Assembly (NCBI RefSeq): GCF_030013595.1
Contig: NZ_CP122768.1
Direction: 5' to 3' (one strand)
Length of the DNA stretch: 64,000 nt
From: Escherichia coli
GTDB lineage: Bacteria; Pseudomonadota; Gammaproteobacteria; Enterobacterales; Enterobacteriaceae
Part shown: in pieces, positions 1 to 4,283 of the stretch
How the letters are laid out: every line of letters begins with the position of its first letter
How positions within the stretch are numbered: the first letter of the stretch is position 1
Translations under genes and position numbers: made by a program
The notes under the pieces: model-generated
What the model saw: the letters and a program-made list of their open reading frames with translations, nothing else
What the model was told of the DNA's origin: nothing
Databases searched by the model: none

Positions 1-883
1 TTCTCTTTTTAAACTGTATGTCTTCTGGATTTCCCACTAACTGACTGAAATCTCCTTTCATAACTCTTTCGCTTGTTTCAAAGAGCTGTATTGCTATCGA
101 GTCGATTAATTCCTTTTTGGACAGAGATGCTTGTTCATAAAATTTGGTGACTAACTCTGTTGGTAACTTTCTTGAGACGACTTTAATGGACAGTCTCTGA
201 AATAGGTAAGGTGCCACCACGCCCACACTGAAAGGGTGAATCCTCCCTGGATTTAATAATTTTATTGTGACGTTTTCAAAAACTAGCTCATTGATTTTAC
301 TATTTATGAATTCCATTAAATACTTATCTAATGATAATGTTACCGACGCAACCGCTTCTATCACTTGTTTAAATGGCTCGCCTTTCAAGGATTTAAAAAA
401 CTCTTTGTTATAACCAAAGAAATCCACAAAACCTAAATTTATTCGATTTTCTTCTTTAGTATTTGAAATGCGAATTTGAAGTTGTTTTAAGTCTTCATCG
501 GTCAAGTATTTTAAACCATAGTCATCAAGCGCGTTACGTATAACTTTATCTGCAGATTCTAAGTCGATTACAGTTTTTACATTAAAAAACAATGATAACA
601 ATGAATCATACTTATGAACTCGCAAGGTTAAATCTGTTGCATTTGATGCGGTTACATTTATACGTCTCAAAAGATCAATAACTTTACTAATTGGTAGGCT
701 GTTTTCAAAAATTTTGAATGACTCGTATTCAGATACAACATCTTTTATATACTTACTGATAGTATGAGACTTTATTTCCACCTCAACTTCGGTTGAGTAA
801 GAATGAATTAGTGAGTTTGTAGTTTCAGCGATGTCATTTGATACATACAACTTATATTCGAAACAATCAGGAGCGGGAAGCAA
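1..883 (-). CDS. hypothetical protein, partial (continues past left window edge); AT-rich accessory gene
   Basis: Open minus-strand frame from 883 to position 1 (>290 codons, translated by hand); no in-frame ATG near the 5' end, candidate GTG start at 779-781 after GAAG; different frame from the upstream ORF; ~30% GC. Confidence 0.4.
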   Translation of the reverse strand, partial: MLPAPDCFEYKLYVSNDIAETTNSLIHSYSTEVEVEIKSHTISKYIKDVVSEYESFKIFENSLPISKVIDLLRRINVTASNATDLTLRVHKYDSLLSLFFNVKTVIDLESADKVIRNALDDYGLKYLTDEDLKQLQIRISNTKEENRINLGFVDFFGYNKEFFKSLKGEPFKQVIEAVASVTLSLDKYLMEFINSKINELVFENVTIKLLNPGRIHPFSVGVVAPYLFQRLSIKVVSRKLPTELVTKFYEQASLSKKELIDSIAIQLFETSERVMKGDFSQLVGNPEDIQFKKR

Positions 884-1233
884 CTATTATCAATAATGGA
901 AAACAATAAAAATTTAATTATTTCTCTTAATGCTTGCGGTCTAGTTATTCTACCTTGCATTTTTTTACATTGTATTAAACCACTTACAACACCGTTATGG
1001 TATAGCACGCAGTCGCGTCCTCTTTCAGAAACTCCTTGCATTAAAGATATTGAGGATATATTTTTATGCTTTCCATCTTCAATTTCGTTCTTTACTAACA
1101 AATAACATAGCAACTCAAATTCTCGATCACCTAATTCTGAAAAGGGAAGCAATCCGATACCAGAATCTATAGTCCATGGTCTATATCCTGATTGAGCCTC
1201 GATATTAATTTGTTCGTCACTGATTTTTTTCAC
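808..1233 (-). CDS. hypothetical protein with PD-(D/E)xK-like motif (GRD...16 aa...IQCK)
   Basis: 141-aa ORF, GTG start at 1231-1233 with AAGGAG 6 nt upstream; AT-rich; motif recognised by eye only. Confidence 0.45.
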   Translation of the reverse strand: MKKISDEQINIEAQSGYRPWTIDSGIGLLPFSELGDREFELLCYLLVKNEIEDGKHKNISSISLMQGVSERGRDCVLYHNGVVSGLIQCKKMQGRITRPQALREIIKFLLFSIIDNSCFPLLIVSNISCMYQMTSLKLQTH

Positions 1234-1248
1234 TTAAATCTCCTTCTA

Positions 1249-1277
1249 ATCTTATTGACCTACTCCCTACATTGTAA
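1249..1277 (-). promoter_or_regulatory. putative sigma70 promoter (TTACAA-17-TAAGAT) for the 808..1233 ORF
   Basis: -35/-10 hexamers with 17-bp spacer read on minus strand just upstream of the RBS. Confidence 0.3.
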
Positions 1278-1548
1278 CAGGGGATGATGATAAGGTGTAT
1301 CTTTCGAGCTATAAGCACGATAAATAAGTGATTAAAAATGACTCTTTAAACTATTTTAATTTAAAAAATTAATTGTTAGTTCTAATTATGGTATGAGGGC
1401 ATTTTCGGCATAGTTCTAACCATATACTTTGGTAAAAATGACTGTTACGGAACAGACCATAGTAATGCCTGCTATTGGCACGGAGCGGGCCGCCTGAGCG
1501 CCGTGGGGTCTGCAAACGGTAAGCATACCGATAACTATACGCTTGGCC

Positions 1549-1968
1549 TTAGTAACTTTTGCTCCCCTCAATAAATCCGCCATCTTTTATCGGACTGCAA
1601 TGTCCTTCTTCATCAATCAGTTGCTCGTCTTTCAGGTAGGTATATCGATAGATAATTGAGCCATTATCCATCTCACCATTGGTTCGTTTCATTAGGAGAG
1701 TAAAATGTAACGGGCTGTCCCTATATCGAGCTATTCCATGAATATTGGCAAGTACCTCATATTGACGCTCAGGTGATAACCCTTTAAATACATCGAGATA
1801 TCCATGGAATGTTCCATAGAGTGAAGAAGTGTAGATCAGTCGCTGCTCTGGACCAGTAACTTTAAGAGTAATTTGTTCACCCGTATTACAGGTTAGCTTG
1901 GCGGGAAATGTCTCAGCCTGAGCAGAAGAAATAGTCAAGCTTAAAATTATCAGGTAGCAATATTTCAT
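1549..1968 (-). CDS. small secreted/periplasmic protein of unknown function
   Basis: ATG at 1966-1968 gives 139 aa with N-terminal signal peptide MKYCYLIILSLTISSAQA; two Cys in mature part; longer track ORF has an implausible N-extension. Confidence 0.5.
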   Translation of the reverse strand: MKYCYLIILSLTISSAQAETFPAKLTCNTGEQITLKVTGPEQRLIYTSSLYGTFHGYLDVFKGLSPERQYEVLANIHGIARYRDSPLHFTLLMKRTNGEMDNGSIIYRYTYLKDEQLIDEEGHCSPIKDGGFIEGSKSY

Positions 1969-2250
1969 GTGATTAGAATGTCCAAAACTAACATGTATAC
2001 TCGGGATTCTATAACTAGTTGGATGTAGACCCAAGATGTATTGGACTATTCTTCGGTTGTAGTTGGTCAAATCATATATTTTATGTCAGCAATGTCTACT
2101 TTTGGCACATAGCAGACCAGAGACACTGGCGTAAAGCCATGGAGGATCGGTGGGAGGAGGTAAAAATCCTCTCATGCAAAAAATACGCAAAATCGATAAC
2201 AGTTGGAAATCATTCAATACTCGCACTATCGGAAGTTCACCAGCCAGTCG

Positions 2251-2376: not shown

Positions 2377-3246
<870 letters not shown>

Positions 3247-3271
3247 GTCTTTAAGTGATAAGCATAAACCG

Positions 3272-3320
3272 CAGCACGATCTTGCATACGACGTGCTACG
3301 GTTTCATTTATCTCCGACCG
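3272..3320. terminator. hairpin between convergent GIY-YIG gene and pin (likely bidirectional terminator); partner of repeat at 2251..2298
   Basis: Dyad AGCACG-13 nt-CGTGCT followed by GGTTTCATTT; overlaps last pin codons. Confidence 0.45.
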
Positions 3321-3894
3321 GAAACTTCTTATACAAAGTCGATACACCCACATCGTAGATAATCGCCACCTTCTGGCGAGGAGTTCCTGCTGCAATTAAT
3401 CTTCCGGCTTGTGCCCATTGTTCTGGTGTAAGTTTGGGACGACGTCCACCAATTCGTCCCTGTGCGCGAGCAGCTTCCAGTCCAGCTTTTGTTCGTTCAA
3501 CAATCAGTTCACGCTCCATTTCAGCCAGGGCACCCATCACATGAAAGAAAAAGCGTCCCATTGGTGTGCTGGTATCAATTGAATCCGTCAGACTATGAAA
3601 GTTGATGCCTCGTTCGCGCAACTCCTCCACCAACACGACAAGATGCCGCATACTACGCCCCAGCCGATCCAGCTTCCAGACAACCAGAGTGTCACCTGCC
3701 GATAATGTCCTGAGCAGTTTTTTCAGTCCCGGCCTTTCGGACTTTGTGCCGCTTATCTTGTCTTCAAAAATCAGCTCGCATCCTGCACAGTTCAGCGCAT
3801 TACGTTGTAGATCTGTGTTCTGGTCATTTGTTGATACGCGTACATAGCCAATAAGCATGGTAGATCCCCCTGACAAAAGCAGGAATGATGCCAT
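3304..3894 (-). CDS. pin: DNA invertase Pin (Gin/Hin/Cin serine recombinase family)
   Basis: 196-aa ORF begins MLIGYVRVSTNDQNTDLQRNAL, near-identical to recalled e14 Pin. Confidence 0.95.
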   Translation of the reverse strand: MASFLLLSGGSTMLIGYVRVSTNDQNTDLQRNALNCAGCELIFEDKISGTKSERPGLKKLLRTLSAGDTLVVWKLDRLGRSMRHLVVLVEELRERGINFHSLTDSIDTSTPMGRFFFHVMGALAEMERELIVERTKAGLEAARAQGRIGGRRPKLTPEQWAQAGRLIAAGTPRQKVAIIYDVGVSTLYKKFPVGDK

Positions 3895-3938: not shown

Positions 3939-4283
3939 GCGGCAAAGAGGAATGTGGGGACAGGAGAAAATCAGGTACCGGATATGAACAGCTTTGGTAA
4001 CTCATTGACCGCCAATGGATACCAGAAATTACCTGGGGGGATGATTATTCAATGGGGGAGTTTTTCTGTCTCACCAACCGGAGGAAGTGTTGGAACAGTT
4101 GATATAACATTACCTGTAGCTTTCCCTGCTGCTTGTCGTTCGGTAAACGCTCTTATTTCAACTAATGATCCTTCTGCCCGTTCTGTGGGCTTTGATATTG
4201 GAAGTACCAACAGAACTAAAATCAGATTTACTTACACTTCTGCTACAACAAATTCAATTTACTGGATGGCTGTGGGGTATTAA
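3939..4283 (+). CDS. alternative tail-fibre C-terminal segment (Sv'-like), silent in this orientation
   Basis: In-frame coding begins at the crossover site; followed by a tail-fibre-assembly gene; upstream part of track ORF 3885.. spans the recombination site. Confidence 0.6.
   Translation, partial: AAKRNVGTGENQVPDMNSFGNSLTANGYQKLPGGMIIQWGSFSVSPTGGSVGTVDITLPVAFPAACRSVNALISTNDPSARSVGFDIGSTNRTKIRFTYTSATTNSIYWMAVGY

Follow-up and report, generated by a model that had tools for sequence, protein, structure and literature searches.

What is a GC-rich patch doing in an otherwise AT-rich spacer between two genes at the end of a prophage? The question is raised by positions 1234-1548 of a 64,000-nucleotide stretch of Escherichia coli DNA (contig NZ_CP122768.1), which is referred to here, at its full length, as the window. 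An earlier note on this DNA, made from the letters alone, had described the spacer as intergenic, with a GC-rich patch, several short dyads and a duplicated motif, and had left open whether it was a small structured RNA, a pair of protein-binding sites or a remnant. The description was largely borne out. The spacer is the exact gap between two minus-strand genes, bounded by the stop codon of an upstream 139-aa gene and the start codon of a downstream 488-aa gene; measured over 60 nt, its G+C content is 0.63 at 1450-1509 and 0.60 at 1480-1539, against 0.13-0.40 across 1300-1449 and 0.387 over the whole spacer; and the dyads are real, comprising the hairpin CGGTA-TGCT-TACCG (1530-1517) and a pair of inverted arms (1490-1467). 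The comparative evidence set out below points to a junction between two independently mobile, promoter-bearing gene cassettes, a reading to which we give a probability of roughly 0.7.

Two modules meet in the spacer

Conservation in the spacer is divided between the two genes that flank it. Homologs of the 139-aa protein occur at 63-99% identity in Klebsiella, Pectobacterium and Citrobacter, and a contig of Pectobacterium odoriferum (L005) matches window positions 1513-2113 at 92% DNA identity, with weaker similarity to about 1462; past the equivalent of that point, both its sequence and its next gene differ from those of the window, and on the 5′ side of the module the homology ends at 2113. 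In more distant homologs, the similarity is confined to the coding region. The 3′ flank that travels with the 139-aa gene thus covers about 1462-1549.

The 488-aa gene carries a different part of the spacer with it. Its homologs in Pectobacterium aroidearum (L014), Pantoea (L015) and two metagenome contigs (L017 and L027) stand in unrelated contexts, and all four are preceded by a conserved AT-rich region of about 245 nt that aligns to the window from 1481 down to 1234. This homology begins abruptly at GTGCCA, and further upstream the four sequences are all unrelated. The homologies of the two sides overlap in a minus-strand segment of 29 nt, CCCGCTCC GTGCCAA TAGCAGGCATT (1489-1461). With 1548 to about 1462 conserved alongside the 139-aa gene and 1481-1234 alongside the 488-aa gene, the spacer is therefore a seam.

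Anatomy of the probable junction

The overlap coincides with a member of a family of short sites, in which inverted arms of 7-8 bp (consensus GTCCGCTC / GAGCGGAC) flank an asymmetric centre. Inverted arms around an asymmetric centre are the usual core-site anatomy for a simple tyrosine recombinase. Two classes can be distinguished by their centres, GTGCCA(R) in class 1 and GAGCGA(R), in reverse TCGCTC, in class 2; the right arm of class 1 has the consensus (N)AGYRGAC(A/G)TT. A position weight matrix (PWM) built from eight boundary sites finds just two matches in the 64-kb window, at 1489-1461 (score 40.6) and 2116-2088 (36.9), as compared with 0.3 matches per shuffled window at a score of at least 12. 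Both are of class 1, and the second forms the pinE-side edge of the variable hotspot in which the locus lies.

Within a locus, class-1 sites are always co-oriented and class-2 sites always opposite to them. A typical junction consists of a class-2 site in reverse, a linker of about 20 nt (CTTCAG...) and a class-1 site in forward orientation, together about 85 nt and GC-rich. On the minus strand, the island of the window would accordingly read as the 3′ flank and hairpin of the 139-aa gene, a decayed class-2 site, a linker and an intact class-1 site. Judged against L005 and the complete junctions of four other contigs (L040, L037, L038 and L014), the class-2 remnant has lost its centre TCGCTC and about four more bases in a deletion of about 10 bp. 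When class 2, linker and class 1 were folded together as single-stranded DNA (ssDNA), only the small palindrome of each site was formed, with z-scores of -2 to -2.7 in three complete junctions and about 0 in the window island, L038 and L014; a long attC-like hairpin, which had been considered, was dropped on these folds.

Putative recombination footprints at other loci

The same sites delimit other cargo elsewhere. E. coli genomes that share both the constant segment on the attachment (att) side and the pinE side of this locus hold other cargo between them, including a Ppl/TrlF ATPase and a 4-fold beta-flower protein (Bflower), and high-scoring sites are found at the boundaries of these genes. 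On the pinE side, the left flank is constant up to and including the left arm, and the right arm and all that follows are variable (L033, L034 and the window). Class-1 sites also mark homology breakpoints in Pectobacterium, in Pantoea, in other E. coli prophage hotspots and in viral contigs.

Insertion/deletion polymorphisms form a further kind of footprint. One contig (L049) carries a 1.3-kb cassette that is absent from another (L040), and the single site of L040 equals the left part of one L049 site joined to the right part of the other. L040 in turn carries a 5.7-kb iron-uptake module that is absent from L044, with the crossover inside the class-2 centre TCGCTC, and sites also form the ends of a 4.27-kb segment that a prophage (L041) shares with an island (L040). 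No short target-site duplications (TSDs) or terminal inverted repeats accompany these polymorphisms; the whole site is duplicated instead. Such hybrid sites are comparative evidence for a putative strand exchange at the site.

The family is also widespread. A degenerate site pattern of 22 nt has matches in at least 120 viral contigs, as against a chance expectation of about 1-2 by rough estimate. The left flanks of the 79 viral sites analysed fall into 38 different sequences and the right flanks into 56, and the commonest left flank, present at 20 of the 79, is joined to 14 different right flanks.

One further arrangement was seen on the Pantoea plasmid pPANA10 (L037), where two genes of the dihydrodipicolinate-synthase family lie inverted at 2990-3883 (+) and 10225-11118 (-), each followed by a site, of class 1 at 3939 (+) and of class 2 at 10170 (-). 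The 6-kb segment between these opposed sites, which contains the recombinase gene described next, may be invertible.

A small tyrosine recombinase adjoins the sites

The recombinase was traced through L034, where a site is separated by 20 nt from a 34-aa piece of a tyrosine recombinase, its C-terminal part; this fragment led to full-length relatives of 200 aa, here termed int200. The protein matches Pfam Phage_integrase at 5e-19, consists of the catalytic domain only and has all of the catalytic residues R, K, HxxR, H and Y, as read from its sequence; no NCBIfam equivalog was matched, and similarity to PDB entries is just distant, to XerD and XerA. In all 12 loci examined, namely plasmids of Pantoea and Kosakonia and ten E. 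coli contexts (chromosome, prophage or island), a class-1 site stands 20 nt past the int200 stop codon. The left arm and GTGCCA do not vary at these int200-adjacent sites, unlike the right arm and the downstream genes. The recombinase gene and a divergent HEC-08 gene form a unit that is bracketed by class-1 sites; HEC-08 is a validated HEPN defence protein (bioRxiv 10.1101/2024.01.29.577857).

Of 5426 complete E. coli genomes, 863 (16%) carry the int200 gene, and homologs of 50-64% identity are found on plasmids of beta- and alpha-proteobacteria, Shewanella and Vibrio. One of them, 56% identical, lies on the Shewanella baltica plasmid pSBP1 (L173 3992-4588) beside a type I restriction-modification operon (hsdM/hsdS), a neighbourhood suggestive of how defence genes become "embedded" in other defence loci. 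In L040 and L034, the constant left arm 20 nt past the int200 stop falls within the hairpin GGGCTGC-AACA-GCAG(C/T)CC, which may represent a terminator or belong to an attI-like primary site.

Proposed mechanism and its weighing

Taken together, these observations suggest the following scheme. The recombinase int200, encoded elsewhere, would exchange strands inside the centre of a site. Two co-oriented sites of one class could thereby release a cassette, take one up or trade one for another, and defence genes and other cargo would in this way pass between prophages, genomic islands and plasmids. In the window, the AT-rich remainder of the spacer would then be the promoter and 5′ region of the nuclease-like 488-aa gene. 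The site family, its breakpoints, the insertion/deletion polymorphisms and the adjacency of int200 are direct observations; the role of int200 as the enzyme and the continued activity of the sites are what we infer from them.

Several findings weigh against this scheme. A tblastn search with int200 gives no match in the 64-kb window, which thus has no recombinase gene of this kind, and an int200-like match lies near just 5 of the 79 viral loci with sites, so that most prophage sites have none nearby; integrase-less arrays are therefore the rule in prophages, and the assignment of the enzyme rests on adjacency in other loci. In the distant int200 homologs of beta- and alpha-proteobacteria, the sequence past the stop codon cannot be clearly aligned to the enterobacterial site, being GC-rich or palindromic in three of five distant loci (Cupriavidus, Achromobacter and Phaeobacter; the others are from Shewanella and Vibrio). 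The e14 prophage of E. coli K-12, which has pinE and mcrA, is without a site. In the window itself, the class-2 half is incomplete, with arm remnants and linker present at 1524-1490 and the centre missing. The right arm of the site overlaps a -35-like hexamer, and part of its conservation could reflect promoter function. Finally, the right arm of the 5′ site of the 139-aa module diverges more between E. coli and Pectobacterium than does the adjoining module, which the rule that the right arm travels with the cassette does not predict.

With no int200 in the window, the class-2 half deleted and the 488-aa gene frameshifted, this junction has most likely become a fossil whose only remaining role is that of a 3′ flank and promoter region. 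The intact class-1 site could nevertheless be a substrate for int200 supplied in trans. To this extent, the earlier suggestions of a protein-binding site and of a remnant hold in spirit, in a sequence other than the one that was pointed to.

A broader reading, for which we see an even balance of odds, is that the sites and int200 belong to an undescribed cassette system of Proteobacteria, integron-like and mechanistically distinct, made up of a minimal recombinase, two classes of palindromic sites of about 24-30 bp and shuffled promoter-bearing cassettes. Equally balanced is the extension that its cargo is often anti-phage (HEC-08, Ppl and nuclease-like proteins), that its venues are prophage ends, tRNA-linked islands and plasmids, and that integrase-less arrays are left behind. 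No description of such a recombinase-site-cassette system was found in the literature, with the exact site strings included in the search; coverage was incomplete, and an earlier description is possible.

Alternative explanations

Among the alternatives, a purely regulatory spacer fares best, although it is unlikely. It would consist of the terminator of the 139-aa gene and the promoter and operator of the 488-aa gene, and GTGCCA...GACATT, instead of being a recombination site, would be recognised by one transcription factor as a common operator or -35 element. The right arm of the 2116-2088 site does supply the -35 of a promoter with 10 of 12 sigma-70 consensus matches (the -35 lies within that arm), promoter-like sequence stands immediately past the site in cassettes, a small hairpin follows the stop codon of the 139-aa gene, and dyad symmetry would also suit a dimeric regulator. 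Regulation, however, leaves unexplained why homology starts and stops inside the motif between unrelated replicons, why single sites at insertion polymorphisms are exact left/right hybrids and why the motif lies 20 nt past the recombinase stop codon in every locus examined. The terminator part also fares poorly, as a scan for intrinsic terminators (a GC-rich stem of at least five pairs with a T-run) gave none in 1100-2500; the CGGTA/TACCG hairpin has just TTTG after its stem and fell below threshold, making it a weak terminator-like element. Regulatory and recombination roles are not mutually exclusive.

Far less probable is a chance or decayed feature, such as an old coding fragment, a repetitive extragenic palindromic (REP) or miniature inverted-repeat transposable element (MITE)-like repeat, an insertion sequence (IS) end or an integron attC without a role. 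In favour of this, the spacer is present in only 38 of 5426 complete E. coli genomes at ≥99% identity and single-copy in each, it occurs on a few plasmids with IS5-family elements inserted in it, and the neighbouring gene is frameshifted. The single-copy state rules out a REP or MITE, which would be repeated within genomes; the GTTRRRY / RYYYAAC pair that signals attC is absent on both strands of 1461-1535; the polymorphisms lack the short TSDs and terminal inverted repeats of transposition and duplicate the whole site; and the site family lies far above chance. That the feature is a relic in this genome is compatible with the cassette junction.

The duplicated motif of the earlier note, TAAAAATGACT, was recovered in two copies, the only ones in the 64 kb on both strands; they lie 100 bp apart from start to start, with 89 bp between them and not 87, and the match extends to 13 of 14 bases. 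An exact direct repeat of at least 11 nt arose in 1.45% of 2000 dinucleotide-preserving shuffles of the spacer, which makes it nominally unusual. Neither the second nor the proximal copy is conserved in any relative, and the duplication is therefore lineage-specific and probably fortuitous. The suggested protein-binding pair consequently finds no support in this repeat, whereas the GC island does hold a dyad-symmetric site of recombinase type. A separate 9-nt exact direct repeat, TAGTTCTAA, occurs at 1377-1385 and 1411-1419, 34 bp apart within the conserved leader; it reads TTAGAACTA on the minus strand, is partly kept in relatives as GTTATAACT and could be a regulator-binding pair.

Several other candidates were tried and rejected. 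A Tn3-family inverted repeat for GGGGTCTGC was abandoned on the homology pattern, a true Tn3-type repeat being found only at the truncated end of L027; a sigma-54 promoter (TGGCAC-N5-TTGC, plus strand) has a -12 element that is not conserved across sites; a LexA box and Pin/Hin crossover sites are unfit in spacing and sequence; and decayed thrW att repeats would require the resemblance to the tRNA-Thr 3′ end to lie in the other orientation.

The least probable of all is the structured RNA, which would be either a small RNA released from the 3′-untranslated region of the 139-aa transcript or a leader that regulates the 488-aa gene in cis: the island does lie directly past a stop codon, is GC-rich amid AT-rich sequence, has short dyads and shows one compensatory change in a GCCCGCT/AGCAGGC stem between E. 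coli and Pectobacterium, but Rfam gives no match in 1234-1548 even at E≤10, ARAGORN finds no tRNA or tmRNA in the spacer (the earlier note, too, could fold it into neither a tRNA nor a known RNA family), the spacer folds like its shuffles on both strands (z -0.99 and +0.95) and the GC island, folded as DNA, no better than its own (z -0.43 and -0.14), and the RNAalifold consensus of five homologous 488-aa leaders reaches just -6.15 kcal/mol over 235 columns. What looks like a stem is formed by the two inverted arms of the DNA site, which vary freely among loci, and conservation is divided between two modules instead of following one transcript. The GC-rich patch is very probably not an RNA gene; the proposed cassette junction accounts for it without a new RNA.

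Features of the locus and its surroundings

The features of the locus are collected in Table 1.

Table 1. Positions in the window of the features of the spacer, the adjoining modules and the neighbouring defence gene
Feature	Position	Strand	Remarks
488-aa gene, 5′ part (putative cassette 2)	1-1233	-	GTG start at 1233
Shine-Dalgarno sequence AAGGAGA of the 488-aa gene	1245-1239	-	
AT-rich 5′ region travelling with the 488-aa gene	1234-1460	-	Conserved upstream of homologs
Extended -10 TGTTACAAT	1279-1271	-	Invariant among the 488-aa leaders compared
CTTATCATCATC	1294-1283	-	Precedes the extended -10
TAAAAATGACT, copy 1	1333-1343	+	The copy nearer the 488-aa gene; at this place relatives read AGCAACTCTCT, ATTAATTCGCT or similar
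TAAAAATGACT, copy 2	1433-1443	+	Shares positions with a semi-conserved -10-like block (relatives: TATCAT or TATAAT)
Block GTAAC-N-GTCATTT	about 1450-1436	-	Within the 488-aa 5′ region
Class-1 site CCCGCTCC GTGCCAA TAGCAGGCATTACT	1461-1489	-	PWM 40.6, highest of all sites found
Left arm of this site	1490-1482	-	
Centre GTGCCAA of this site	1481-1475	-	
Right arm of this site	1474-1467	-	
Linker CCACGGCGCTCAGGCGG	1490-1506	-	Related to the CTTCAGCTCAG linker of complete junctions
Degenerate class-2 remnant ACCGTTTG / CAGACC	1507-1524	-	Reverse orientation; from alignment with L005 4455-4490 and complete junctions
Hairpin CGGTA-TGCT-TACCG, then TTTG	1517-1530	-	DNA fold; identical in Pectobacterium L005; in the 3′ flank of the 139-aa gene
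139-aa gene (putative cassette 1)	1549-1968	-	Open reading frame; signal-peptide-like N-terminus; stop TAA 1551-1549
Sigma-70-like promoter TAGACA-16-TATGAT for the 139-aa gene	2071-2098	-	Promoter scan, 10/12 consensus matches
Second class-1 site TCTGCTAT GTGCCAA AAGTAGACATTGCT	2088-2116	-	PWM 36.9; bounds the 139-aa module on its 5′ side
PD-T4-3 single-gene anti-phage system, LEM-3-like GIY-YIG	2473-3246	+	PADLOC 2e-140

The N-terminus of the 488-aa protein is predicted to be a PD-(D/E)xK nuclease of the Cap4-Mrr-like kind. Among its 120 homologs, some are named DUF4297 and one carries PF04471 (Mrr_cat); the match to LmuA is weak, and a scan of genome contigs with the protein gave just two distant loci. 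The elements CTTATCATCATC and TGTTACAAT together form the putative promoter of its gene, an assignment made by consensus match only; transcription is predicted to start near 1264 here and near 2064 for the 139-aa gene. Compared with E. coli CT02, the window copy of the 488-aa gene has lost 1 bp near 882 (AAA to AA) and is thereby cut to 141 codons (808-1233), and in two near-identical contigs (L031 and L032) it is truncated at codons 105 and 95; its repeated inactivation hints at toxicity or dispensability. In L027, a Tn3-family terminal inverted repeat (GGGG...GGAACGAAAACGTACGTTAAG) truncates the 3′ flank of the 488-aa cassette. The 139-aa protein has no Pfam or PADLOC match.

The spacer itself has been the target of at least two independent insertions of IS5-family elements (ISKpn26 or IS5), at the equivalents of about 1382 and about 1493 (L002, L003 and L004), on IncHI2-size and 106-kb plasmids and in strain ECONIH5; in these cases the 139-aa and 488-aa genes are no longer adjacent. 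The GenBank phage collection does not contain the spacer.

This locus forms the variable cargo end of a pinE-type prophage. To its right lie the PD-T4-3 gene, the pinE invertase gene, invertible tail-fibre genes and baseplate genes; the PD-T4-3 gene stands between the hotspot-edge site and pinE and is flanked by no class-1 or class-2 site. A partial Rfam CssrB match at 3270-3326 (-), with 32.4 bits against a gathering threshold of 76 (E 8e-4) and covering the 3′ hairpin only, is probably just the terminator hairpin downstream of pinE. To the left, the near-identical locus of E. coli CT02 shows the 488-aa gene followed by about 125 nt, a constant segment of about 300 bp and a 47-nt copy of the 3′ end of thrW (tRNA-Thr). 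This copy is the att repeat of the prophage, at about 10100 of L001, left of window position 1, and beyond it in L001 a CP4-6-like island (yafW/ykfI) is integrated in tandem; ARAGORN finds no tRNA in the window. Similarity to CT02 stops at about 23.9 kb of the window, and the rest of the prophage therefore differs from that of CT02.

Implications

Defence islands and prophage hotspots turn over fast, and the molecular means by which single genes move are mostly not known. If the cassette reading is true, a site family and a candidate recombinase present in about one sixth of E. coli genomes would offer a testable mechanism for this turnover, as well as a sequence signature by which cargo cassettes could be delimited and defence genes predicted through "guilt by cassette". 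It could also explain defence genes "embedded" inside other defence loci, and a compact recombinase-site pair for genome engineering might follow.

Comparison with known systems

Phage morons and prophage hotspots, such as those of P2 and P4 or mcrA beside pinE in e14, resemble the present locus in being self-contained units of foreign composition at a prophage end, between tail-fibre or invertase genes and att, with strain-variable content that includes defence genes (here PD-T4-3, Ppl and HEC-08). They are defined by position, however, whereas here the boundaries carry a specific family of sites that is absent in e14.

The FimB/FimE invertases share with int200 a length of about 200 aa, a catalytic domain without further domains and short inverted-repeat sites, and int200 has weak NCBIfam matches to "tyrosine-type DNA invertase" (25 bits against a cut-off of 222). 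In contrast to their single invertible promoter, the sites here bound cassettes, and the sites themselves differ.

The pdif modules of Acinetobacter plasmids, which depend on XerC/XerD, likewise consist of cargo with short sites, often in opposite-oriented pairs, and occur in many replicon contexts, often with no dedicated recombinase adjacent; many int200-type loci, by contrast, have a dedicated small recombinase next to the site. Sites of the dif type span 28 bp and pair an 11-bp XerC arm with an 11-bp XerD arm across a centre of 6-8 bp (consensus 11-6-11, GGTGCGCATAA-TGTATA-TTATGTTAAAT), and the window site shows no resemblance to dif, cer or pdif. Against the XerC and XerD models, with cut-offs of about 330 bits, int200 scores 50 and 32.

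Similar in site architecture is the shufflon of IncI plasmids such as R64, in which Rci acts on sfx sites made up of a variable left arm, a 7-bp asymmetric core GTGCCAA and a conserved right arm (PMC4176322, PMC11852207). The architecture is the same, and both window centres are GTGCCAA, identical to the sfx core. The right arms differ, being the 12-bp TCCGGTACGTGG in sfx and (N)AGCRGACATT here, with TAGCAGGCATTA and AAGTAGACATTG in the window. Furthermore, int200, at 200 aa, lacks the extra C-terminal domain of the larger Rci; the sites here are co-oriented between whole genes, unlike the sfx sites, which are inverted inside pilV segments; and the products seen here are insertions and deletions, not inversions.

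In overall organization, there is a likeness to integrons, which comprise the integrase IntI, a primary attI site and attC-bounded cassettes, and to CALINs, which are clusters of attC sites without an integrase. As in integrons, a tyrosine recombinase gene is directly followed by a primary site with a unique left arm; as in integrons and CALINs, co-oriented arrays of sites separate single-gene cassettes, many of them without a nearby integrase; and the cargo is rich in defence genes, with one platform joined to many different cassettes. The differences lie in the machinery. At 200 aa, int200 is shorter than IntI, which has about 320 aa and an integron-specific insertion, and it scores far too low, at 58.2 bits against the cut-off of 220, for the XerA/integron-integrase model. 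The sites are palindromes of 24-30 bp of the double-strand type, in contrast to attC hairpins of 57-141 nt with RYYYAAC/GTTRRRY, and the junctions fold as separate small palindromes, not as one long hairpin. Two site classes lie in opposite orientation, and the cassettes bring promoter-like regions of their own.

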